NCBI GenBank assembly: GCA_964597925.1
Contig: CAZQZT010000002.1
Coordinates: forward strand, 39,038-103,037
Length of the DNA: 64,000 nucleotides
Direction of reading: 5' to 3'
Source of the DNA: an uncultured Candidatus Saccharibacteria bacterium
Lineage (GTDB): Bacteria > Patescibacteriota > Saccharimonadia > Saccharimonadales > JBBQAJ01
In this document: positions 781-53,350 of the stretch, in pieces
How positions within the stretch are numbered: position 1 is the first letter of the stretch
Layout: each line of letters begins with the position of its first letter
Made by a program: the position numbers and the translations under genes
The notes under the pieces: generated by a model
Seen by the model: only the letters and a program-made list of their open reading frames with translations
The model's database searches: none
Told to the model about the DNA's origin: nothing

Positions 781-1733
781 TTGACACAAGCATTATGCTG
801 CCCTCGCCCGTGGGGGCAGGAATATAAATGTCAGGATTGCTTACTTTACTGGTGAATTAATGAGTTTCCCTAGTACCAGTTCAAACATTGGCGTGTCGCT
901 TTTCCGGTTTGAATAACGGAAAGCATACTCGTTAGCGTAGTGTTGGAGATACTGTTTGTCGCAGTGCCGGTAGACACCGTAGATGCCTCGTTTGAATTGG
1001 CTCCAGAAGTTCTCAACGTTTTGGGTGTGGACTCGACCCACAACGTACTGGTGGATGCTGTGGTTAACGGTTTGATGCTCATAGCCACGTCGTTTAAGTA
1101 GCTTATATGAGCCATGTTCATCGCTATAGATAGTCGCTGATTGATCAATGTTCTTTTGAATCTCTGGAACAAGTATTCGTGTACCGGAACTCTTGACGTG
1201 CTTTATCCGAGCTCGACCACCACGTTCTACCATACCAAAGATAACTTGGCTGTTGTGTGGTTTAGCTGTACTACGTCTTTGAGGGTTGGGGTGTATGTAG
1301 ACTTCATCAACTTCAACATCATCGTTAAGCAAGCTTTCATCGTCAGCCATCATAAGCCGGACTTGTTTAAAGATACGCCAAGCTGTTTTATACGTTACTC
1401 CACTAATACGCTGGAACTGTAAAGCTGACATACCCGAACGGGTATTAGTCATAAAGAAGATAGCCAGAAGCCATGTTCTTAGGTCTGTAGTGGATTTATG
1501 GAACGGTGTGCCAGCTAGCGGATAAACTTGAGCACCACACTGGCACTGGTAGGCTGGACGACCAGGTAGCTTATGAAAGCCATTGTAGAGACCACAAGTA
1601 GTGCAGGGCTTATCTTCAAAGTGCATCTGCCATAAGTAGTCCAAACAGGAGTCGCTAGTCGGGAACTTTTCGTTAAACTGTCGCATCGTGAACTTCATAA
1701 TTACAGTTTACACCACTGTTAATATGGTGTCAA
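781..1733 (-). mobile_element. IS1595-family insertion sequence (ends approximate)
   Basis: Contains a single transposase ORF. The only terminal inverted repeat I found by eye is short: TTGACAC at 781..787 versus GTGTCAA at 1727..1733. No target-site duplication was recognised, so the boundaries are uncertain. Confidence 0.45.
841..1698 (-). CDS. IS1595-family (ISXO2-like) transposase
   Basis: 285 aa. Cys-rich N-terminal zinc-ribbon-like region (KPCTTCG...YQCQCG) followed by a DDE-type core (VDEVYI..., IYSDEHGSY...), as in IS1595/ISXO2-like transposases. Confidence 0.75.
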   Translation of the reverse strand: MKFTMRQFNEKFPTSDSCLDYLWQMHFEDKPCTTCGLYNGFHKLPGRPAYQCQCGAQVYPLAGTPFHKSTTDLRTWLLAIFFMTNTRSGMSALQFQRISGVTYKTAWRIFKQVRLMMADDESLLNDDVEVDEVYIHPNPQRRSTAKPHNSQVIFGMVERGGRARIKHVKSSGTRILVPEIQKNIDQSATIYSDEHGSYKLLKRRGYEHQTVNHSIHQYVVGRVHTQNVENFWSQFKRGIYGVYRHCDKQYLQHYANEYAFRYSNRKSDTPMFELVLGKLINSPVK

Positions 1734-2364: not shown

Positions 2365-3711
2365 ATGAAGAAACTTCCTATCGTCGCTATTGTGGGTAGG
2401 GCGAATGTTGGTAAATCGTCCTTATTCAACGCTGTTTTGGAACGGCGAGAGGCAATTGTGGCCCGAGAAGCAGGCACTACTCGCGATAGCATTATGGCCA
2501 AGGCAGATTACCGTGGTCAGCACTTTTGGCTAGTAGATACTGCCGGCATAAAAGACGCCGAAGATGACTTTGAATTTACCATCCAAGAGCAAATACAGCA
2601 GGCAGCGGATAGCGCTGATGTAATCTGGGTAGTTATTGAAGCCGACGTAGCCATTACAGAAGAAGACCGCCGAGTCGCCAAAATGGCTCTAAAGTCTAAA
2701 AAACCTGTATTTTTAGTTGTAAACAAAATGGACAAAGCTCCTAGGGCAGAAGCCTCAGATTATCAAAGGCTCGGCATCAAACCGATTATGCTCACTAGCA
2801 GTACGCAGACACGAGGCGTAGAAGAGCTTTTGGACGAGCTGGTCATACAAATCCCACGAGCCACGCTGACAGAAGACACTGACACTATTCATGTAGCACT
2901 TCTAGGACGTCCAAATGTGGGCAAATCTGCACTGTTTAACAGCTTGGCAAAGAAACAGCAGGCAGTCGTGTCGGACAGGGCAGGCACTACGCGCGATATA
3001 AACCGTGCTACTGTGCGCTATGAGGGCAAATCACTAGAGATTATGGACACAGCCGGCATTCGCCGTAACGGTAAGATAGAAAAGGGCATCGAGCGCTTTA
3101 GCGTAATCCGTAGCCTGGCCGCCATAGAGCAGGCAGATATATGCCTTATGCTCATGGACGCAAACGAGCTAAACGTGTCACTAGACCAAAAGATTGCTGG
3201 CATGATTAAAGAATCCGGCAAAGGACTCGTGCTGGTAGTCAGCAAATGGGACAGCTTAGAAAAAGACGCCTTCACGCGGGACAGCATCGCCCCTCAAATA
3301 AAGCACAATTACGACTTCGTGCCGTGGGCTCCACTAATCCTTACCAGTAGCATAACTGGGCAAAACGTCACCAAACTGTTTGATTTGATACTAGAAATTG
3401 CAAACGCCAGACAAACTTTGGTCAAAACCACGGAACTTAACCGTTGGCTCAGAGAGATTACAGACAAACATCCGCCTGCAGGCCTAAAAAACCGCACGCC
3501 AAAGCTCAACTATATGGTGCAAGAAAAAGACAACCCCACCAACTTTAAGGTATACGGCGCCAGCACCAAGTTTCTGCACTGGAGCTATAAGCGATACATG
3601 GACCGCACCCTACGTGAAAAATTTGGCTTTGCCGGCACACCCGTAAAATTCTGGTTTTTCGAAAAACACGAAACCCATAAACACGGCACTAGACCAAAAA
3701 CAGATGATTAG
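2365..3711 (+). CDS. der: Ribosome-biogenesis GTPase Der (EngA), tandem GTPase domains plus KH-like C-terminus
   Basis: Two P-loops (GRANVGKSSLFN and GRPNVGKSALFN), each followed by DTAG and NKxD/SKWD motifs. 448 aa. Confidence 0.9.
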   Translation: MKKLPIVAIVGRANVGKSSLFNAVLERREAIVAREAGTTRDSIMAKADYRGQHFWLVDTAGIKDAEDDFEFTIQEQIQQAADSADVIWVVIEADVAITEEDRRVAKMALKSKKPVFLVVNKMDKAPRAEASDYQRLGIKPIMLTSSTQTRGVEELLDELVIQIPRATLTEDTDTIHVALLGRPNVGKSALFNSLAKKQQAVVSDRAGTTRDINRATVRYEGKSLEIMDTAGIRRNGKIEKGIERFSVIRSLAAIEQADICLMLMDANELNVSLDQKIAGMIKESGKGLVLVVSKWDSLEKDAFTRDSIAPQIKHNYDFVPWAPLILTSSITGQNVTKLFDLILEIANARQTLVKTTELNRWLREITDKHPPAGLKNRTPKLNYMVQEKDNPTNFKVYGASTKFLHWSYKRYMDRTLREKFGFAGTPVKFWFFEKHETHKHGTRPKTDD

Positions 3712-3728
3712 TCAGGTATAATCACAGT

Positions 3729-4367
3729 ATGGCGTTGTTTCAGAAAAAACCAGATGTGGAAAATTCCAAGCCTATTTATACATTAGGTCTGCAAAAGCAT
3801 GTACTGATAGTGGGGCTAGGAAACGAGGGCAAAGAATATGACGACACTCGTCACAATATAGGCTTTGCCTGTATAGATACGCTGGCAGCCAGTCAAGGCA
3901 TAGAGGGCTGGGCTCACAAGAAGGATTTGAAAAGTGAAGTTGCTACCGGAAATGTGGGCGACACACGGGTGATTTTGTGCAAACCCACAACCATGATGAA
4001 CCTGAGTGGCACAGCGATGCAGGCTGTGGCACATTTTTATAAAATAGAAGTCTCTCAAATAGTGGTGGTGCATGATGAGCTAGACATAGACTTTGGACAG
4101 ATAAGAACGCGCATGGGCGGTTCAGATGCAGGTCACAACGGCATAAAATCGCTTATAGAACACCTAGGCGAAAACTTTGGCAGAGTACGCGTAGGAGTAG
4201 GACCGAAAACACCCGCCCAAATGGACAGCGCAGACTTTGTACTGGGCAAATTCAATACTGAGGAGCAAACACAAATAAAGAACTTGCTACAAGAATCCAC
4301 CGCTATCTTAACTGAGTTTATTCACAGCCAAAACATCCTCCCAGAAACCCGCAGTTTTCTAGTTTAG
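3729..4367 (+). CDS. pth: Peptidyl-tRNA hydrolase
   Basis: LIVGLGNEGKEYDDTRHNIGF ... MNLSG ... VVHDELD ... GGHNG(I)KS are classic Pth motifs. TATAAT (3717..3722) lies 6 nt before the ATG. Confidence 0.9.
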   Translation: MALFQKKPDVENSKPIYTLGLQKHVLIVGLGNEGKEYDDTRHNIGFACIDTLAASQGIEGWAHKKDLKSEVATGNVGDTRVILCKPTTMMNLSGTAMQAVAHFYKIEVSQIVVVHDELDIDFGQIRTRMGGSDAGHNGIKSLIEHLGENFGRVRVGVGPKTPAQMDSADFVLGKFNTEEQTQIKNLLQESTAILTEFIHSQNILPETRSFLV

Positions 4368-4844
4368 CGGATTGTTAGTTTGGGTAAGCGTTTGTATCTG
4401 AGCGGTAACCCAGGCAAGAGTTTCAGCAAAGCTTTCGCTCATACCAGCCAGTACTCCAAACATCTGTGCTCGTGCTTCCAGATATGGCAGTCTTAGCTCC
4501 GGTGGTATTAGCTCAAGAACTTCTGCCTCAACCTGCATACATGGAGTCTGTCTACCGTCTCTAGCGAATTCTATATGCTCGTGTAGGGCAGCATAGGCTC
4601 CTACTTGTGGTAGCATCTGACCACTAACCAAGATAGTGAGTTCTCCAAACTCATCGGGCTCAGATACCCAGACAGCCACCGGTTTTAATGCTTCTGGGGC
4701 ATCTTTAAAAATCGGATCGTTTTCTAGATCTGTAACTGCGTAATACCGTACCGTCATATCGCCTGCGGTGAATTCGTGTGGAGTTCGGGTTGCAAGAACA
4801 CTTGCTTCTTTTCGGGGCTCAGGCATTGTAATAAATAATATCAC
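4359..4844 (-). CDS. hypothetical protein (about 155 aa; likely start at MPEPRK)
   Basis: Uninterrupted ORF with protein-like composition and no recognisable domain. It lies immediately downstream of a structured region ending in an intrinsic terminator. Confidence 0.5.
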   Translation of the reverse strand: MILFITMPEPRKEASVLATRTPHEFTAGDMTVRYYAVTDLENDPIFKDAPEALKPVAVWVSEPDEFGELTILVSGQMLPQVGAYAALHEHIEFARDGRQTPCMQVEAEVLELIPPELRLPYLEARAQMFGVLAGMSESFAETLAWVTAQIQTLTQTNNPLN

Positions 4845-4857
4845 TATCTGCTAATTA

Positions 4858-4900
4858 ACAAAAAAGAGCCTCCAGAGGGGGTGGGCACCGCTGGAGACTC
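4858..4900 (-). terminator. Rho-independent terminator (minus strand)
   Basis: 10-bp stem with one mismatch, GAGCCTCCAG (4866..4875) / CTGGAGACTC (4891..4900), followed on the minus strand by TTTTTTGTT. Confidence 0.6.
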
Positions 4901-5200
4901 ATTTTCAGGCACCACCAAGCTCGCAAAAGAGGTCGTGCCCTTAAAACACCCTTCAACCCACCCAGCGAAGCATCGTTGTCTACCAAAGTGCCTACGGACA
5001 CGTGCTTCCTGCCAAGGCAGGAATCTTGCGGACTCGCTTTGAATCTTCTCGACAAGTCGAGAGGGTTAGTTAAAGGGGTTAGTTTGTTTTAGAACGCTTC
5101 TCGAAATCGAGATTGCAGAGTAAGTGGAGGGTAACAACTTAAAACGCACGCTCTAAAACAATCTAACAATTTTCCCCGCATGTGCGAGGTGTTAGAATAG
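4858..5200 (-). ncRNA. Candidate structured non-coding RNA or cis-regulatory leader, unclassified (5' end not defined)
   Basis: ORF-free apart from an implausible 66-aa ORF. At least 6 hairpins are visible by eye, e.g. TCTCGAC-AA-GTCGAGA (5047..5062), TCTCGA-AA-TCGAGA (5099..5112), TTCCTGCC-AA-GGCAGGAA and GGCACCACC/GGTCGTGCC, and it ends in the terminator at 4858..4900. It does not match RNase P, tmRNA or SRP signature sequences as I remember them. Confidence 0.3.
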
Positions 5201-5851
5201 GGATATAAGGTGCATAAATCCGACTGCGCGGACTTAGGATTGCTATTTTAGCAAATTCATTACATTATGTCAATACTTAAACCGGTTGTTGTATGAAAGT
5301 CAATAAAGTTACTAGCACAAGTTCAGACTAGCCAAAAGCTCTTGAACATATTCCCAGACCCCCAAAGCAACTTTTTGTATATCGAAGGAATTACGTCTAG
5401 CTAATGAGCATCTAGGCAACGGTTTACCAGAATTGGGCTCACCGACAGCTTATAAATAACCAAAAAAAAGGTAATAAAAAGAAAACTCCCCTCAGATAAG
5501 TTAGGCATCCTAAGTATGCTCTGGCTATCGTATTCGCAGTTGTGTTTGGTGTACTAGGCTGGTATTTTATAGTGTTTAGCAAAGCAGCACCGGTTCGATT
5601 CAAGCCACTTGGCAAGCTCCAAATGGAAGAGGAGCAAAAAATAAACAGCATACCGTTACCGTAACGGCCAAAGACCCAAGCGGCAATACCACGACTACAT
5701 CTCGTACGTTTTACGTACAATGATTCATTTTTTTCACATCTGTTAAAAGACATGAATTGTATTTTGTGAATTTGCAATTGGATAGGATTTGATTTAGTCT
5801 AGTCATTTGCATATATAAGAAGAAATAAGACATAAGGTATACTTAAGCAAT

Positions 5852-8137
5852 ATGGCGAAAAACCTAGTTATCGTGGAGAGCCCAGCCAAAGCCAAGACTA
5901 TAGAGAAGTTTTTGGGCAAAGACTACTCTGTTAAAAGTAGCTTCGGACATATCCGGGACCTACCAAAAAAAGGTCTCAACATCGATATAGCCAACAGTTT
6001 TGCGCCTACATACGCCGTACCGGCCGAAAAATCCAAAGTTGTCCGTGAGCTAAAAGCCGCCGCAAAAGGCGCCACCGTTTGGCTAGCCAGTGATGAAGAC
6101 CGTGAAGGAGAGGCCATTGCCTGGCATCTCTGCGAAGCGCTTGGACTCAAGCCAGCTGAAACCAAACGAATAGTGTTTCATGAAATTACCAAATCAGCCA
6201 TAGAAGAGGCTGTAAAAAACCCACGTACTGTTGACATCAAACTAGTAGACGCACAACAAGCACGACGAATTCTAGACCGCTTAGTGGGCTATGAACTCAG
6301 TCCCGTGCTGTGGAAAAAAGTTAGAGCAGGGTTATCTGCAGGCCGGGTACAGTCTGTAGCTGTACGACTGATAGTAGAGCGGGAACGGGAGATCAAAGCA
6401 TTTGAAGCAGAGGGTACATATAAAGTTATAGGTTCCTTTAACGGAGGTGAGGATTTTGACGCAGAACTAAACAGCCGATTAGCAGACGTAACTACAACCG
6501 AAAAGTTCCTAAACGACGCCAAACTTTCGACCTACAAAATAGCCAGCATCGACCAAAAGCCAAGTACTCGTAACCCGAGCGCTCCGTTTACTACCAGCAC
6601 GCTTCAGCAAGAAGCAGCCCGCCGGCTAGGATTTGGCGTCCGCCAAACTATGACCTTAGCCCAGCGACTGTACGAAAACGGCGACATTACCTATATGCGT
6701 ACAGACAGCACCACACTGTCTGGCCAAGCCATCAAAGCCGCAGAACAATACATCAAAAAGGAGTACGGCAACGACTACTGGCAAGTGCGCCAGTATAAAA
6801 CCAAAAACTCCAGCGCACAGGAAGCTCACGAAGCCATCAGGCCAACCAGTTTCAACAAACTGAGCGCTGGTACAGATGAGCAGCAAAAAAAGCTTTATGG
6901 GCTAATTTGGCGCCGTGCTTTAGCTAGCCAGATGGCACCCGCACAAGTAGATCGTACTGAAGTAAACATAGCCATGAGTGACAGGCCAGAGATGTTTGTT
7001 GCAAAGGGTGAAGTTCTAAAGTTTGACGGTTTTTTCAAAGTCTATGGTGGAGGCAAAGACGACACCATACTACCTCCGGTAAAAGATGGTCAAACGCTAG
7101 ACTTAAAAGGTATCCTGGCCACAGAAACATATAATCGCCCTCCTGCCCGCTACAGCGAAGCCAGCCTAGTGCGCAAACTAGAAGAACTAGGAATTGGCAG
7201 ACCGAGCACCTATGCGCCGACCATTAGTACCATCCAGACTCGAGAGTATGTGGAAAAAGCTGATTTGGAAGGCAAAGAGCGTAAAATAACTTTTCTAAAA
7301 CTAGAAAACGGAAATGTAGAAACAGGGAAAACTATCGAAATAACGGGTGCAGATAAAAACAAACTAATGCCTACCTCTGTGGCTGATGTTACTACTGACT
7401 TTTTGGTCAAACACTTCGGCACCGTTCTAGATTACGACTTTACCGCCAAAGTAGAGCAAAAGTTTGACGACATAGCCGAAGGCAAAGAGTCTTGGGTAAA
7501 AATGCTCGAAGACTTTTATAAAGACTTTCACCCGCTTGTAGAAAAGTCCGCAAAAGTCAGCCGTGAAGAAACCAGCCAAGCCCGCCAGCTGGGCGATGAC
7601 CCAGGCAATGGCAAGCCCATCATGGCTCGTTACGGCCGTTATGGGCCTATGCTACAACGAGGCGTAACCGAAAGTGAAGAAAAACCAGACTTTGCCCCTA
7701 TGCCAGAAGGCTTAACACTAGAAAACGTAACGCTTGAGCAAGCCCTAGAAATGTTCAAGCTCCCACGACTAGTAGGCACTACAGAAGACGGCAAAGACAT
7801 AAAGTCGAACATCGGCCGTTTTGGCCCGTATATAGTAGTAGATAAACTGTTTGTATCTATAAAACCACACGACCCGTTTAAGGTTACCGAAGAAGAAGCC
7901 CGGGAATTGTACGCCGAAAAGTTAGAAAAAGAAGCCAACAAATACATTGCCCAGTTCAAAAGTGGCATAAACATAGTAAACGGCCCATACGGTCCGTATG
8001 TAACCGATGGCAAAAAGAACGCCCGCATAGCCAAAGACACAGACGCCACCAAGATTACCGAAGCGCAGGCCAAGGAAATGATTGCCAAAGCCCCCGCCAA
8101 AAAAAAGAAACGCTTCGTCCGCCGCACTAAAAAGTAG
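5852..8137 (+). CDS. topA: DNA topoisomerase I (type IA)
   Basis: Toprim start MAKNLVIVESPAKAKTIEKFLG, DEDREGEAI, active-site region ITYMRTDS, and C-terminal repeats (GRFGPYI / NGPYGPYV) with a Lys-rich tail instead of Zn fingers. Confidence 0.92.
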   Translation: MAKNLVIVESPAKAKTIEKFLGKDYSVKSSFGHIRDLPKKGLNIDIANSFAPTYAVPAEKSKVVRELKAAAKGATVWLASDEDREGEAIAWHLCEALGLKPAETKRIVFHEITKSAIEEAVKNPRTVDIKLVDAQQARRILDRLVGYELSPVLWKKVRAGLSAGRVQSVAVRLIVEREREIKAFEAEGTYKVIGSFNGGEDFDAELNSRLADVTTTEKFLNDAKLSTYKIASIDQKPSTRNPSAPFTTSTLQQEAARRLGFGVRQTMTLAQRLYENGDITYMRTDSTTLSGQAIKAAEQYIKKEYGNDYWQVRQYKTKNSSAQEAHEAIRPTSFNKLSAGTDEQQKKLYGLIWRRALASQMAPAQVDRTEVNIAMSDRPEMFVAKGEVLKFDGFFKVYGGGKDDTILPPVKDGQTLDLKGILATETYNRPPARYSEASLVRKLEELGIGRPSTYAPTISTIQTREYVEKADLEGKERKITFLKLENGNVETGKTIEITGADKNKLMPTSVADVTTDFLVKHFGTVLDYDFTAKVEQKFDDIAEGKESWVKMLEDFYKDFHPLVEKSAKVSREETSQARQLGDDPGNGKPIMARYGRYGPMLQRGVTESEEKPDFAPMPEGLTLENVTLEQALEMFKLPRLVGTTEDGKDIKSNIGRFGPYIVVDKLFVSIKPHDPFKVTEEEARELYAEKLEKEANKYIAQFKSGINIVNGPYGPYVTDGKKNARIAKDTDATKITEAQAKEMIAKAPAKKKKRFVRRTKK

Positions 8138-8140
8138 TGT

Positions 8141-8149
8141 TTATCCACA
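8141..8149 (+). promoter_or_regulatory. Exact TTATCCACA 9-mer (DnaA-box consensus sequence)
   Basis: Exact match located 4 nt after the topA stop. It is one of four identical, same-orientation intergenic copies in the window. Its function is unknown. Confidence 0.35.
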
Positions 8150-8314
8150 ATTTTGTCTCTTGGCAAGTTGTTTTATAGTGGTATTTGCACAACACATACT
8201 TAGTTAAAGCGTCTATTTCATGATAAAATAATACTATCTCACAGAAAAAGTATTGACTTTTCGTACATTTGTTTTACAATTATACTATTCTTACATAAAG
8301 GACAGGGAAGAGCA

Positions 8315-9346
8315 ATGCCAGAAGCAGCCAAACTACAGATAGAAAAGATCGTAACCGACGTACTCGGGAATATAGACCGCGAACGCGAAAGAGAGATAAT
8401 TGCTCGCCGTTTTGGTTTGTTTGATCGCAAAGAAACTCTGGAACAGATTGGCGAACTCCTAGGCATTACCCGCGAACGTGTCCGCCAGCTAGAGAAGGCC
8501 GTAGTAGCCCGACTAAAAGTAAATGCAGATGGTGGACAGCTGCCACACTTAGCCATGGTGCAAGACGCCTTTATAGAACTACTGGGAGATATGGGCAATG
8601 TAGCCCGTGTCAGTGACCTTAGTGCAAAGCTGAACAAAGAAAACACGCGCATAGACCAGTCTAGGGTGTCTTTTCTAGCTCAACTGAGCCCTAAGCTAGT
8701 TGTGATAAATGACAATGACCATTATTACCACGCCGTGAGCCTAAAAGCCGTACATGACGAGAAGAAAGTGAAAAAGCTCGTAGAACAGATCCTAGCAGCG
8801 GTAAAACAGATTGGCAAACCAGCTACCATAGAAGATATAGCCAAAGAAACCGGTATAGAAAACGTCAAACACGCCGGAGCGCTAGCTAGCATCAGTAAAG
8901 CACTGGCTACCCTAAACGGCCGCTGGGGACTTTTAAAATGGCCTATGGTCAACCCCAAGAATATTCGTGATAAAATCTACGTTATCCTCAAAGAGCATGG
9001 CAAACACATGCACTTCAACGAAATTGCCGCCGCTATCAAGGACAGTGATTTTAAACGCAAAGACGTCACTACACAGGCAATTCATAACGAACTTATCAAA
9101 GACGAGCGTTTTGTATTGATAGGGCGGGGTATATATGCACTGGAAGAGTGGGGTTATGAAAAGGGCACTGTCGCAGACATTATCGCTGAAGTACTAAAGA
9201 ACTCCAAAGAACCACTTCACCGAGACGAGATTGTCAAACAAGTACTCAAAAAGCGCTATGTAAAAGAAACGACTATACTGCTAAACCTACAAGGCAAGCC
9301 ACAGTTCAAGCGAGTAGCCAAAGCCACCTACGCTTTATCGAACTAA
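8315..9346 (+). CDS. Sigma-70 region-4 HTH fused to a C-terminal HARE-HTH-like domain; no sigma region 2 visible
   Basis: N-terminus EREIIARRFGLFDRKETLEQIGELLGITRERVRQLEKAVVARL matches sigma region 4.2. C-terminus HFNEIAAAIK...IHNELIKDERFVLIGRGIYALEEW resembles HARE-HTH (RpoE-delta/ASXL type). Confidence 0.6.
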   Translation: MPEAAKLQIEKIVTDVLGNIDREREREIIARRFGLFDRKETLEQIGELLGITRERVRQLEKAVVARLKVNADGGQLPHLAMVQDAFIELLGDMGNVARVSDLSAKLNKENTRIDQSRVSFLAQLSPKLVVINDNDHYYHAVSLKAVHDEKKVKKLVEQILAAVKQIGKPATIEDIAKETGIENVKHAGALASISKALATLNGRWGLLKWPMVNPKNIRDKIYVILKEHGKHMHFNEIAAAIKDSDFKRKDVTTQAIHNELIKDERFVLIGRGIYALEEWGYEKGTVADIIAEVLKNSKEPLHRDEIVKQVLKKRYVKETTILLNLQGKPQFKRVAKATYALSN

Positions 9347-9867
9347 AAATAGCTTCAAAATGACCAATACGGGTCCGAGTCACGTAGCCTCTGAAGCTAA
9401 GCGGGACACAGACTATTTAGCTCATTCGGCTTAATCACATCGAGCATGAGAGACTTGGGTTAATTGAATACAGCATACGTAGAGCTACGCGATACTGTAA
9501 TGCACACGGCGTTTCCTGAGATGGCCAATTATGGTGATACAAGGCTAATTACCGAACTACATAAATGGGCTGGTAGACCTCTACTAAAACTAGCGTATCC
9601 TGTGAAAGCACGCATTCAGTACGTCTAAGCCAGTCATAATACCGAGACTCTCTAGCTTTTGTAAAAACCTACGCAAAATAGATTGTACAAAATACGAACA
9701 GCGCGGATTTGATGATAAGTAGGGCAAACAGCGGATAATGCGCTGATTTGCATAGACCAAGCAGGTGGGTAGAGAAACCCCGTAGCAAATTTGAAAACCA
9801 TTGCGTGGTGAGGCAAAATTATCTTAGAAGAGGATAGTGCAGTGTGTGAGACATTCACATATATTAC

Positions 9868-9895
9868 ACGTCGCACAATGTATATTTTGCGACTC
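9868..9895. promoter_or_regulatory. Candidate dif-like Xer recombination site
   Basis: ACGTCGCACAA-TGTATA-TTTTGCGACTC: two inverted arms (GTCGCAcAA / TTtTGCGAC) flank a 6-bp TGTATA core, in the gap where plus- and minus-strand gene blocks converge. The left arm and core resemble E. coli dif as I recall it. Confidence 0.4.
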
Positions 9896-10067
9896 GCTTA
9901 TAGTGTTGATTATTGATTAGCGATACCTCTTCTGGAGGGGACTTTTAGTACTATGTCTACCAGTTAACAAGTTCGCACGTTGGTTCTGTCTTCAACTAGT
10001 TACTAGCTAACTCGGTCGCTTACTACTGTCTACGGAAGTGCTGCCGTGATATCTGACATCATTTGAC

Positions 10068-10076
10068 TTATCCACA
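10068..10076 (+). promoter_or_regulatory. Exact TTATCCACA 9-mer (DnaA-box consensus sequence)
   Basis: Exact match inside the 9347..10332 ORF-free gap, next to a T-rich stretch (10090..10140). Confidence 0.35.
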
Positions 10077-10332
10077 GCATTGTCGTGAAATCATTGCTTT
10101 TTCACACTTTTGCTTTTAAAGTTTGTTTTCCCCTGTCCTACTAGAAAACTGAGAAAATTTGACTTTTGCCTGCTGTGCATGTGTAGTATAGTTTTTTGTC
10201 TGCTAAACAGCACTTACAATATATGAACATAATACGAACTAGAGCAGTGGAGAAGAAGCACAGCTTCTAACTCAAACAGTCTTTAGCACCCCGCCTTGGT
10301 TTCTGTACTGTTAGAGTGTTGGACTTATGGAC

Positions 10333-11244
10333 TCACTTGTAGAAAACTTTTACGTCAACACGCACATCCATATACTCACGCGGAGTAGTACCTTCCCTGT
10401 CTAGCTTTGCTTTGACCGCCAAATACGTACCGACGGCTTGGCGTGGGTCACTATCTGTTGAAAATTTTATATAGTAGGGTTGTCCGACAATCACTACATC
10501 TACTTGATTTGCCGACTTCGACGGTAGTGTAACAGATTGAGTTTTTAAATTTTGAGCTTTTAGTTGTGCATACAAACTCTGCAAAAACATAGCCTGATTG
10601 GCGGGTATTATGTTTTTGCCAGGCTCGGCAGTAATCCCAGAATCATCACGAACTACCGGTAAATCTTCTAGGTCGTTTTGGGTCAAGTCGGTAGAGCGAG
10701 CCATTACTTTTCCGTTGGCATTTACATAAAAAGAACCATTGGCACTAACTAACTGTAGCGTTGGTTTTACGGCTGTTAATATAACTGTTGGACGCTTACC
10801 AAGCAGTGGCAATTCAATCTTTACAGAATCTAACTCTGTAAACTGACGGGAAATGTCATTGCTAATATTTGCAGTAGAAACTGTTAGCTTGGTACGGTTC
10901 AATATAGATTTTCTCCAGATTGACTCTACGGCTTCCTGGTAAATTTTTGGCTCTCTGTGCACCGTATTTGGTGTATTCGTCAATATGACTTTAGCTGTTG
11001 GCGTCAATAAGCATGAATAACCAAGGGCAACTACTATTGCGAGGAGTGCAATATAGCTGGGTATATGTCCCCACCTGGGTCGATAACCTGCTGAAGCACC
11101 AGCAGCTGAAATGTCGGTTCTGCCGGTGTTTTGATCAGTATTTGACCCACCCCTGGCATAATACGAAAAAACAGCAGGATTATCTTTTACCGGGCGTTTT
11201 CGCGAATTATTGTCTGATTTATACTTTTTTTTGTACAATCTCAT
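10333..11244 (-). CDS. ftsQ: Cell division protein FtsQ/DivIB (POTRA domain)
   Basis: Cytoplasmic basic N-terminus, one TM segment (IPSYIALLAIVVALGYSCLL), then a POTRA-like beta-rich ectodomain. It is the last gene of the dcw cluster. Confidence 0.7.
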   Translation of the reverse strand: MRLYKKKYKSDNNSRKRPVKDNPAVFSYYARGGSNTDQNTGRTDISAAGASAGYRPRWGHIPSYIALLAIVVALGYSCLLTPTAKVILTNTPNTVHREPKIYQEAVESIWRKSILNRTKLTVSTANISNDISRQFTELDSVKIELPLLGKRPTVILTAVKPTLQLVSANGSFYVNANGKVMARSTDLTQNDLEDLPVVRDDSGITAEPGKNIIPANQAMFLQSLYAQLKAQNLKTQSVTLPSKSANQVDVVIVGQPYYIKFSTDSDPRQAVGTYLAVKAKLDREGTTPREYMDVRVDVKVFYK

Positions 11245-31883: not shown

Positions 31884-33107
31884 ATGACACAATCCGTTGC
31901 AATACTTGGCAGACAGCCCTCACTTGGCTTGGCCGAATTAGAAAGTTTATATGGTGGTGAGGTAATAACCCCGCTCGGCGTACAGGCCGCACTAGTAGAC
32001 GTAGACCCGTGCTTGCTTGCTTTTGACCGGCTGGGCGGCTCGGTAAAATTTGGCAAATTGCTTACAATCTTAGACAGCACAGACTGGCGAGAGATTGAAA
32101 AATTTTTAATAACCGTTGCGCCTGAACATTGTAAGCGTATGGTTGAGGGTAAAATGCAGCTGGGTTTAAGCGTAATTGGCATAAATGTAAGCCTAAAACA
32201 ACTGCAAATCACCGGACTCACGCTTAAAAAAGCCATCCGCCAAACTGGTCGTTCTGTTCGTCTGATCCCCAACAAAGCCCTAGAACTAAACACTGCGCAA
32301 GTTCTACACAACCATTTAACCGGCCCTACTGGCTGGGAGCTGTATTTCATCCGTGATGGACAGCGAACGGTTGTGGCTCAAACTATAAAAATCCAAGACA
32401 TAGAAGCCTACGCGGCGCGTGACCAAGCCAGACCCAAGCGAGATGCCCGAGTAGGCATGCTGCCCCCAAAACTGGCGCAAATAATTATAAATCTAGCTGT
32501 TGGCAAATTGCCAGCAAACAAACTAGCATCTATTTGCGATATCCCTGCAGGTGAGGTAATTCCCCGCCCCAAGCTCGACCAAACCGTACTTGACCCCTTC
32601 TGCGGTACCGGCGTAGTAGTGCAAGAAGCGCTTTTGATGGGCTATACCGCCTACGGAACTGATTTAGAAACGCGTATGGTGGAATATTCCACAGCAAACT
32701 TAGAATGGCTCCATGCATGGAACAAAAACTGGAAAATTGAAGCCGGTGATGCCACAAATTTCTCTTGGCAAGACTTTGACATAATAGCCTGTGAAATCTA
32801 CCTGGGACGCCCTTTTTCTGCTCTGCCGGCGCTCGAAGTGTTGCGAGAAGTAATGGTTGATGTAGACACAATACATAAAAAATTCCTACTAAATGTTGCC
32901 AAGCAAACAAAACCAGGCTTCCGAATGTGCTTAGCCGTACCCGCCTGGAAGACAAAACAAGGCTTTGCACACCTTAAAATGCTTGATAATCTGTCAGATT
33001 TGGGGTATACTCGGTCGGTATTTACTCATGTGGACAGTGCGGACTTGATCTATCACAGACCAGACCAAATCGTAGCCCGTGAGCTAGTCGTTTTAACAAG
33101 AGTATAA
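31884..33107 (+). CDS. Putative SAM-dependent (RNA/DNA) methyltransferase, UPF0020/Trm11-like
   Basis: Motif I VLDPFCGTGVVVQEALLMGY. N-terminal non-catalytic domain. TATACT (31871..31876) lies 7 nt before the ATG. Confidence 0.5.
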   Translation: MTQSVAILGRQPSLGLAELESLYGGEVITPLGVQAALVDVDPCLLAFDRLGGSVKFGKLLTILDSTDWREIEKFLITVAPEHCKRMVEGKMQLGLSVIGINVSLKQLQITGLTLKKAIRQTGRSVRLIPNKALELNTAQVLHNHLTGPTGWELYFIRDGQRTVVAQTIKIQDIEAYAARDQARPKRDARVGMLPPKLAQIIINLAVGKLPANKLASICDIPAGEVIPRPKLDQTVLDPFCGTGVVVQEALLMGYTAYGTDLETRMVEYSTANLEWLHAWNKNWKIEAGDATNFSWQDFDIIACEIYLGRPFSALPALEVLREVMVDVDTIHKKFLLNVAKQTKPGFRMCLAVPAWKTKQGFAHLKMLDNLSDLGYTRSVFTHVDSADLIYHRPDQIVARELVVLTRV

Positions 33108-51867: not shown

Positions 51868-52794
51868 CTATTTCTTGTACAGTCCGATGATTAGAATTAC
51901 GGCAAATGCTACTTTTACGAAGATGCTTAACAGTATGTAGTTTCGTTCTGTGACTTCGTAGCTTTGCTTTGCTTTGCGTAGCCATGACTGGTTGCCAACA
52001 TATCCTGTAAAGGCCGCCAAAGTGGTGATATACAGTACATATACATACCAAGGACTACGTACTTGACCCCAAAGTAGAGTTCCAAGTGCATATACAGCAA
52101 TCATAATCCAAGGTAGCGAGCCAGTTATCAGACTAAGATAAAAATTGTTTCTTTCTGGTTTTGCCGAGTTTGCATTTTGCTTTTCGGCAAACCAGCCTAG
52201 AACACAGGTTATTACCATAAATGCTCCAATGAATTTGAGAGTCATAAGATCACGTACGCCACTTAAAAGTGCAATTACTTCGACTATCAGCGCACTTACT
52301 ACGGCCATATCTATCCAACGCCACAGCATGACATTTTTTTCTAACGAATCTTCAAATTGTTTCCTCTTTTTGGTAGCTGCCAGTAGGGGGATTATCGCAG
52401 AAACTAACAAAATAAACACGACTGCCCAGCGGAGTTCTAGGTCAAATACTGAATGAACGGCTGGTATAAATATAGCACTGGTTTTGCTTGCTAGCTCGTC
52501 TGCTGTTAGTAAGCCAGTAAAAATTTGATATGTACTGTCGTTCATCAAAAATCCTGCTGTCGCTGCTAGGATAATTGCCAACAGTCCACTGGCTAAGTTT
52601 AGTCGCTGGAGTTGAAATGTATATGGTTTTTTGACCTTTTGTGCAGTAGTAGTTTTGACCGCTTTTACAGATACTGATTTTTTGGTAGTTTTTGTTGCTT
52701 TAGTTGCTGAATTTTTACCCTGAGATCGTAGAACTGGTTTGGTAGTTTTAGATTTTGCCTTGGTTGATTTGTTCTTAGTTGTAGCCATGCGCAC
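51868..52794 (-). CDS. Heliorhodopsin-family 7-TM protein with about 60-aa Lys/Thr-rich N-terminal tail (likely ATG start at 52788)
   Basis: Seven hydrophobic segments. Blocks WRWIDMAVVSALIVEVIA, VLGWFAEKQ, GSLPWIMIAVYA and ERNYILLSIFVKVAFAVI align with heliorhodopsin TM3/TM4/TM5/TM7 blocks as I recall them, with Lys at the TM7 Schiff-base position. Confidence 0.7.
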   Translation of the reverse strand: MRMATTKNKSTKAKSKTTKPVLRSQGKNSATKATKTTKKSVSVKAVKTTTAQKVKKPYTFQLQRLNLASGLLAIILAATAGFLMNDSTYQIFTGLLTADELASKTSAIFIPAVHSVFDLELRWAVVFILLVSAIIPLLAATKKRKQFEDSLEKNVMLWRWIDMAVVSALIVEVIALLSGVRDLMTLKFIGAFMVITCVLGWFAEKQNANSAKPERNNFYLSLITGSLPWIMIAVYALGTLLWGQVRSPWYVYVLYITTLAAFTGYVGNQSWLRKAKQSYEVTERNYILLSIFVKVAFAVILIIGLYKK

Positions 52795-52819: not shown

Positions 52820-53350
52820 ATGAAAGAAGTGGCAACACTAGGTGGAGGATGTTACTGGTGTTTGGAAGCGTTTTATCAACGTATCAACGGTGTTGAGAGT
52901 GTTGTTTCTGGCTATAGTGGAGGACACCAGAAAAACCCAACATCCGAGCAAGTCTATACTATGACGACCGGCCATGCAGAAGTAGTTCAGCTGACATTTG
53001 ATCCAGAAGTTATAAGTTATAAAGAAATCTTGGAAATATTTTTTGCTATGCACGACCCCACTACCCTAAACCACCAAGGCCCAGACGTAGGTGAAGTATA
53101 TCGTTCGGTAATTTTTTATCACGACGAAACTCAAAAGAAAATCGCCCAAAACATGATAAAAAACTTCGCCCCTACCCTATACAAAGACCCGACTGTCACA
53201 GAACTAACCATGTATATGCAATTCTGGCCAGCAGATGAACACAGCCAGAACTTTTACAATAACAATCCAAACCAGGGCTACTGCCAGGTAGTAATAGACC
53301 CAAAAATCCAAAAACTCCGCGCCAAATTCGCTAATAAATTAAAAAGCTAA
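52820..53350 (+). CDS. msrA: Peptide-methionine (S)-S-oxide reductase MsrA
   Basis: ATLGGGCYWCLEAFY (GCFWC-type active site), GYSGG, GHAEVVQLTFDP, HDPTTLNHQGPDVG. Confidence 0.92.
   Translation: MKEVATLGGGCYWCLEAFYQRINGVESVVSGYSGGHQKNPTSEQVYTMTTGHAEVVQLTFDPEVISYKEILEIFFAMHDPTTLNHQGPDVGEVYRSVIFYHDETQKKIAQNMIKNFAPTLYKDPTVTELTMYMQFWPADEHSQNFYNNNPNQGYCQVVIDPKIQKLRAKFANKLKS

Follow-up and report, generated by a model that had tools for sequence, protein, structure and literature searches.

Organization of the locus

The DNA analysed here is a stretch of 64,000 nucleotides from an uncultured Candidatus Saccharibacteria bacterium, in the following termed the window. At positions 9347–10332 it contains a gap without a conserved open reading frame (ORF), bounded by the ends of two convergent ORFs at 9346 (plus strand, 343 aa) and 10333 (minus strand, 303 aa). 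The sole ORF of at least 60 aa within the gap, a 74-aa frame on the minus strand (9652–9876), is not conserved in relatives, which bears out the initial annotation of this interval as ORF-free. Small conserved ORFs were sought in the gap and none were found, and scans of the gap for tRNA and tmRNA genes were empty.

The gene on the left side of the gap (8315–9346, plus strand) encodes a protein with Sigma70_r4 and HARE-HTH regions, hereafter called sigma/HARE. According to the published gene tables of cultivated Southlakia epibionticum, its counterpart in this relative is annotated 'RpoS' and essential (PMC10633639). The convergent partner on the right side (10333–11244, minus strand) had been named ftsQ. 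Although Pfam and PDB sequence searches with the 303-aa protein remained without a match, its predicted fold (pLDDT 82) resembles FtsQ crystal structures, the top nine PDB matches having E-values of 2e-11 to 5e-4. The name is thus confirmed at the level of the predicted fold, and by this assignment ftsQ is the last gene of a dcw cluster with the order mraZ-rsmH-ftsI-mraY-ftsW-murG.

Both flanks point into the gap. On the plus strand, der, pth, topA and the sigma/HARE gene (2365–9346) are directed rightward, while about 50 housekeeping genes on the minus strand (10333–63066) are directed leftward. The latter set includes the dcw cluster, secA, prfB, pyrG, several tRNA synthetase genes and rpsB-tsf-frr, and is interrupted by plus-strand genes only at 31884–33107 and 52820–53350. 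The convergence described in the initial annotation is therefore real. Two unannotated minus-strand ORFs lie between pth and topA; gene calls on an identical contig include them as well. Elsewhere in the window, an IS1595-family (ISXO2-like) transposase gene is located near the left end (841–1698, minus strand) and a heliorhodopsin gene (PF18761, E = 2e-31) at 51868–52794.

Architecture of the 28-bp site

Within the gap, positions 9868–9895 are occupied by the 28-mer ACGTCGCACAATGTATATTTTGCGACTC, which had been singled out as a dif-like palindrome and has exactly the outline described for it, with inverted arms around a TGTATA centre. Its 24-bp core (9870–9893) consists of the arm GTCGCACAA (9870–9878), the asymmetric 6-bp centre TGTATA (9879–9884), which is the presumed region of strand exchange, and the arm TTTTGCGAC on the ftsQ side (9885–9893). 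The two arms are complementary at 8/9 positions. Counted with their weakly conserved outermost bases the arms measure about 11 bp, so that the site displays the architecture of a dif site: two arms of this length, partial dyad symmetry and a 6-bp centre. The 28-mer occurs once in the 64-kb window, where no copy is expected by chance, and a second half-site was not found in the window. As to uniqueness, which had been proposed as a check, relatives show one copy per locus except at prophage junctions.

Conservation across Saccharibacteria

For comparison, 35 loci from distinct Saccharibacterial genomes were fetched by means of the FtsQ protein alone, 31 of which extend far enough downstream. 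The 24-bp core GTCGYACAA-TGTATA-TTTTRCGAC, in the sense of ftsQ GTCG(C/T)AAAATATACATTGT(G/A)CGAC, is kept in all 31 with at most 3/24 mismatches. It is invariably found 350–550 nt past the ftsQ stop codon and in a single orientation, even though FtsQ identity falls as low as 26–35% across this set. The TGTATA centre is altered in three of the 31 relatives. Comparison of the homologous intergenic regions, suggested in the initial annotation, hence reveals a core that is conserved class-wide behind ftsQ, as is characteristic of a dif site.

Common variation is confined to core positions 5 and 20, which are dyad partners. These positions change independently of each other, with 10 double changes observed and 10.2 expected. 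Such independence argues against a selected hairpin and fits two equivalent protein half-sites which tolerate the same pyrimidine change.

A metagenome scan with the exact core pattern yielded at least 120 further stretches. Since these were chosen by the pattern, invariance of their core is given by construction, and sequence conservation was measured on the 31 FtsQ-anchored loci only. The scan is informative for gene order: of the 122 matches listed from metagenomes and viruses, about 110 share the synteny murG-ftsQ-[site]-sigma/HARE-topA, so the site has essentially one genomic context. One additional match on a viral contig offers too little context and was left out of the set.

A conserved block on the ftsQ side and a variable opposite side

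The site is embedded asymmetrically. On the ftsQ side it adjoins some 350 nt of conserved non-coding DNA (9896–10245), hereafter the conserved block, in which short invariant islands alternate with variable spacers. The islands comprise a TGTTC-N6-TGTTC repeat, an A-tract with TATA, GTCAAA, AGGGGAA, a DnaA box and a hairpin. The latter, short and rich in G+C (9926–9940, plus strand), is terminator-like for plus-strand transcripts, and its stem sequence varies among relatives as judged by eye. A consensus DnaA box, TTATCCACA, is found at 10068–10076 on the plus strand. Its distance to the site is conserved, being 173–227 nt in 27 of 33 loci, and some relatives possess two or three boxes. The density of DnaA boxes amounts to 1.35 per kb in the block versus 0.07 per kb elsewhere. 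A second consensus box of the window, TTATCCACA at 8141–8149, is situated between topA and the sigma/HARE gene, and many relatives have an equivalent one.

The distal end of the block carries the near-invariant direct repeat TGTTCG-N5-TGTTCA with a period of 11 bp (10223–10239, minus strand). It resembles a response-regulator box, perhaps of the OmpR/WalR/ArcA type. The spacing between repeat and core ranges from 285 to 419 nt among relatives. Neither a consensus RNA structure nor a coding signal was detected in the block. A sigma-70 promoter composed of the TTGACT and TATAGT islands was considered and rejected because of their spacing (22 nt by eye), and a promoter scan of the gap gave no convincing site. 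In two relatives, a cargo gene on the opposite strand is placed between ftsQ and the block; by eye, one of these genes is exonuclease/GIY-YIG-like (502 aa) and the other MFS-like (491 aa).

On the sigma/HARE side, the spacer between gene end and site (9347–9867) is not conserved. At this place relatives harbor unrelated cargo genes, prophages or the gene of a type IV secretion system (T4SS) coupling protein. In 9347–9867 itself, a pseudogene remnant of the cargo genes found in relatives was not detected. In S. epibionticum, the tables of PMC10633639, in the parts covered, place about 15 kb including CRISPR-Cas9 on this side. Directly adjoining the site on the same side, a gene for a TraG/VirD4-like T4SS coupling ATPase of 870–1020 aa is present in five of the relatives (L026, L027, L030, L038 and L161) and in S. 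epibionticum (SEML1_0293).

Natural recombination within the core

Direct evidence for recombination comes from a pair of loci of the same strain, one with an empty site (L047) and one with an occupied site (L040), whose flanks are 100% identical over 431 nt on the left and 579 nt on the right. The occupied allele contains an insert of 5.49 kb exactly at the core, encoding a rolling-circle Rep of the G2P family, a Zot-type assembly ATPase and a Phage_Coat_B-like protein. Toward ftsQ, the border of the insert is a perfect site; at its opposite border lies the hybrid site ATATCGCAATATACATTGTGCGAC, the phage-facing arm of which is degenerate. The two junctions, attL and attR, have the 19-nt segment AATATACATTGTGCGACAT in common, and the TGTATA centre lies within it.

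Two further prophage lineages are inserted in the same place and orientation, one on a 1.1-Mb Saccharimonadales contig (L164) and one on a 279-kb contig (L167). Their Zot proteins are 62–67% identical to that of the L040 prophage, and their attP arms show the same pattern of a perfect arm plus centre, followed by a degenerate arm starting with TTGC. The prophages extend over positions 1351–6835 in L040, 6670–12154 in L171, about 6579–12255 in L164 and 6724–12130 in L167. All three lineages leave the perfect site beside the conserved block on the ftsQ side. Compared with the chromosomal site, the arm equivalent to 9870–9878 stays perfect in the phage attP, while the ftsQ-side arm (9885–9893) is swapped for a degenerate arm displaced by 2 bp (TTGCG...). 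An integrase gene was not found in the prophages at the site.

Besides the prophage-bearing alleles, the loci L049 and L161 share a common right flank from core position 6 on, and their left flanks are unrelated. Altogether, a crossover within the core is seen in four independent cases. Strand exchange inside the core, a defining property of dif sites, is therefore documented by empty and occupied alleles as well as by pairs with a common flank, and the 28-mer is a genuine, active site-specific recombination site.

The inserted elements belong to a family of Saccharibacterial inoviruses of 5.1–5.7 kb, for which 655 Zot homologues were retrieved from the protein database, many of them on contigs of 4–5.5 kb. 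Three relatives of the phages (L168–L170) are represented by circularly permuted 5.2-kb contigs with terminal overlaps of 107–127 nt, indicating free circular genomes. In these three, an attP could not be recognised, the best match to the 24-mer having 8 mismatches.

Two additional observations concern other elements. A viral contig with the gene for a large terminase subunit, as in tailed phages, and with iteron-like 57-nt repeats carries a perfect 24-mer (L041, 761–784). In S. epibionticum ML1, ten non-essential ORFs on the same strand (76, 60, 50, 49, 36, 559, 89, 105, 259 and 317 aa) occupy 264,205–269,609 directly past the ftsQ homologue, according to the part of Table S1 of PMC10633639 that covers this region. 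By ORF sizes alone, this run resembles the inovirus prophages.

Interpretation as a probable dif site

Taken together, the architecture, the class-wide conservation in a fixed orientation and the crossovers inside the core suggest that the 28-mer is the dif site of Saccharibacteria in a lineage-specific variant, an interpretation to which we assign a probability of about 80%. A host tyrosine recombinase of the Xer family, probably a single one, would bind both arms of 9–11 bp and carry out strand exchange where they border on the asymmetric TGTATA centre. By this reaction, chromosome dimers would be resolved at division, presumably under the control of FtsK. Small filamentous phages without an integrase would exploit the same reaction by means of an attP composed of a perfect arm, the centre and a degenerate arm. 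Because the second arm of this attP is degenerate, integration would restore a perfect host site next to ftsQ, and the opposite junction would become a hybrid.

Among the alternatives, the one that fares best regards the site as an attachment site of mobile elements only, devoid of a host function and served by a recombinase from the elements or by an unrelated host integrase. In its favour, the direct evidence for recombination is all related to phages, and the tailed-phage fragment has its perfect copy next to the terminase gene. However, the core is invariant class-wide in genomes free of prophages, which calls for a host function; moreover, the 5.5-kb prophages lack an integrase and one perfect site is regenerated at every integration. 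Exclusive use as an attachment site is thus unlikely.

Even less probable is that the palindrome serves as operator of a dimeric DNA-binding protein, for instance a regulator tied to the DnaA box or the TGTTC repeat, the integrations being coincidental. The dyad symmetry would suit such an operator, as would a surrounding block of conserved linear motifs which resemble protein-binding sites. Yet both flanking genes face the palindrome with their 3' ends, leaving no downstream gene that could be regulated, its asymmetric centre is conserved as much as the arms, and crossovers inside the core are seen in four independent cases.

It is very improbable that the conserved sequence gives rise to a structured non-coding RNA or serves as a terminator hairpin. 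For so compact a genome the gap is long, and folding of the 28-mer yields a hairpin (−6.8 kcal/mol, z = −2.5), but this hairpin is not followed by a T-run. A search of the gap against Rfam yielded no match at the gathering threshold or even at E = 10. RNAalifold, applied to both strands of 97 sequences, returned only the invariant palindrome with a covariation term of zero, in line with the independent variation of the dyad partners. An Rfam family or structured RNA was consequently rejected, as neither a covariance-model match nor a covarying structure was obtained.

A replication origin, or another replication element controlled by DnaA, is hardly to be expected here despite a consensus DnaA box whose distance to the site is fixed and the two or three boxes of some relatives: the box is usually single instead of forming a cluster, genes converge on the gap and do not diverge from it, dnaA is absent from the locus and lies 264 kb away in S. 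epibionticum, and the published Saccharibacterial origin maps between dnaN and dnaA (PMC6031116), so that oriC was rejected.

Candidate recombinase

If the 28-mer is a dif site, its recombinase is probably encoded elsewhere in the genome. A tyrosine recombinase gene was found neither in the window nor in 1.24 Mb of loci around the site, and in about 150 loci a search with E. coli XerD gave no XerD-like ORF at a distance of up to 6–10 kb from the site. In S. epibionticum ML1, the sampled portions of the gene tables list one tyrosine recombinase, SEML1_0117 (PMC10633639, Tables S1 and S2). This protein of 307 aa combines PF00589 with PF02899, its best structural matches are named XerC, and transposon mutants of the gene display a growth defect (PMC10633639). 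By the positions given in these tables, SEML1_0117 is 148 kb away from the syntenic locus. FtsK of the same organism is essential and contains a gamma domain (PMC10633639, Tables S1 and S2). Judging from this relative, an enzyme of the SEML1_0117 type may act at the site, and dimer resolution may depend on FtsK.

Xer-related tyrosine recombinases of candidate phyla have been described as a subgroup of their own (PMC8138268). Such a separate position would fit the arm sequences: the arm octamers are absent from all dif sites predicted by Kono for 641 organisms.

The initial annotation had proposed a single-recombinase system of the XerS, XerH or XerA kind. With respect to the number of enzymes this proposal gains support, as the near-identical arms tolerate the same C/T change independently and one XerC-like gene is listed for S. 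epibionticum; a single host recombinase is therefore probably responsible for both arms. With respect to organization it does not hold, because no recombinase gene is present near the site in these loci, and the system is thus not a module of the XerS or XerH type.

Comparison with known Xer systems

The Saccharibacterial site shares with XerCD/dif of E. coli and CodV-RipX/dif of B. subtilis a length of 28 bp, the arrangement of two arms around a 6-bp centre, A/T-rich inner arm positions, phylogenetic conservation, a convergent switch of gene orientation and, in a Saccharibacterial relative, an FtsK with gamma domain. The centre TGTATA is that of E. coli. In contrast to XerCD/dif, the arms read GTCGCAnAA rather than GCGCATAA and TTATGTTAAAT and are almost perfectly symmetric; above all, the usually well-conserved XerD arm TTATGTTAAAT is missing, so that the site departs from the canonical consensus. 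Further differences from XerCD/dif, seen in the one complete relative checked, are a single annotated Xer-like gene and a location of the locus 110° from dnaA. Overall, about 18/28 positions agree with E. coli dif, to which a resemblance had been noted at the outset, but the arms do not match canonical dif.

Near-palindromic arms and the likely use of one recombinase connect the site to XerH/difH, XerS/difSL and archaeal XerA/dif. In both XerS/difSL and XerH/difH, however, the recombinase gene adjoins its site and forms a module with it, whereas no such gene lies next to the Saccharibacterial site, and difSL has a centre of 11 bp instead of 6 bp. Archaeal dif sites are of the 11-6-11 type and need not be located 180° from the origin (PMC5357621). 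FtsK, which is not known from archaea, is present in the Saccharibacterial relative.

The phages find their counterpart in the IMEX CTXphi, VGJphi and TLCphi at the dif site of Vibrio. Insertion of integrase-less filamentous phages at dif with regeneration of one intact copy is known IMEX behaviour (PMC5357621). Correspondingly, the prophages of the relatives are without an integrase of their own, possess a dif-like attP made of one good arm, the centre and a degenerate second arm, and are flanked by a dif site and a hybrid site, one functional host site being regenerated. They differ from the Vibrio IMEX in host phylum, in belonging to another phage family with genomes of 5.1–5.5 kb and 655 Zot relatives in the database, in the 2-bp displacement of the degenerate arm and in the existence of some circular relatives without a recognisable attP.

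A resemblance, and only that, exists to the plasmid sites cer and psi, which likewise combine a core Xer site with a few hundred base pairs of conserved DNA on one side and a response-regulator-like box. ArcA binds to psi (PMC5357621). Unlike cer and psi, the Saccharibacterial site is chromosomal, the spacing between repeat and core is variable (285–419 nt) and an accessory protein is not known. It is conceivable, though doubtful, that the core works together with the 350-nt block, the latter being an accessory region through which DnaA and a two-component signal would be linked to dimer resolution or fork arrival.

Position relative to the replication terminus

Gene orientation converges on the site in relatives as well: in 152 loci, the share of ORF length pointing toward it is 98% on the side of ftsQ and 96% on the opposite side. 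On the scale of a chromosome, convergence could be followed in S. epibionticum, for which the dnaA-anchored Table S1 of PMC10633639 spans about 864 kb and orientation was sampled in 7 of 13 parts. In the region from 207 to 264 kb, syntenic with the right flank of the window, 54 of 60 genes are on the plus strand, and the ftsQ homologue ends at 263,648; farther upstream, the sampled part from 67 to 137 kb has 59 of 76 genes on the plus strand. From 273 kb to at least 703 kb, essential genes in the sampled parts are almost all on the minus strand, including the sigma/HARE gene, topA, der, dnaB, dnaX, rplJL, rplK, nusG, secE, dnaK and ftsH. In the sampled parts of this genome, the syntenic locus is thus a switch from plus to minus orientation.

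Measured from dnaA, the switch in the same partly sampled table lies at 30.5% of the circle, corresponding to 110° and not 180°, which implies either replichores of very different size or an origin located apart from dnaA. At the site, neither the GC nor the AT skew of third positions changes sign in the window or in 151 loci; like the local GC skew, both are dominated by large gene-specific effects and do not decide the matter. The proposal of a candidate replication terminus accordingly finds partial support: the orientation switch, seen in the window, across 152 loci and in S. epibionticum, speaks for it, the 30.5% position and the absence of a flip in the third-position skews against it. 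On balance, we lean towards the locus being a replichore junction, at which replication forks may meet. The narrower claim of a dif-type Xer site at the point of convergence stands on firmer ground, through class-wide conservation and natural recombinants that cross over inside the core.

Biological implications

No earlier description of a dif site, whether in Saccharibacteria or elsewhere in the CPR, was retrieved by full-text literature searches, and both are missing from the 641-organism catalogue of Kono. As a probable dif site, the 28-mer pins down the likely place of chromosome dimer resolution in these tiny epibionts and suggests a one-recombinase Xer system which is unlinked to its site. 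Furthermore, a large family of filamentous phages of 5 kb comes to light, which use this site for lysogeny in Saccharibacteria. If the conserved block should indeed act as an accessory region, it would represent a chromosomal counterpart of the accessory-sequence principle of cer and psi, placed at the end of the cell-division operon, and such coupling might explain a site located 110° from dnaA. Provided that the locus is a replichore junction, it could be used for estimates of growth rate from metagenomes. Saccharibacteria are now genetically tractable, so that marker excision or vectors for site-specific integration would be possible applications of the site and its recombinase.
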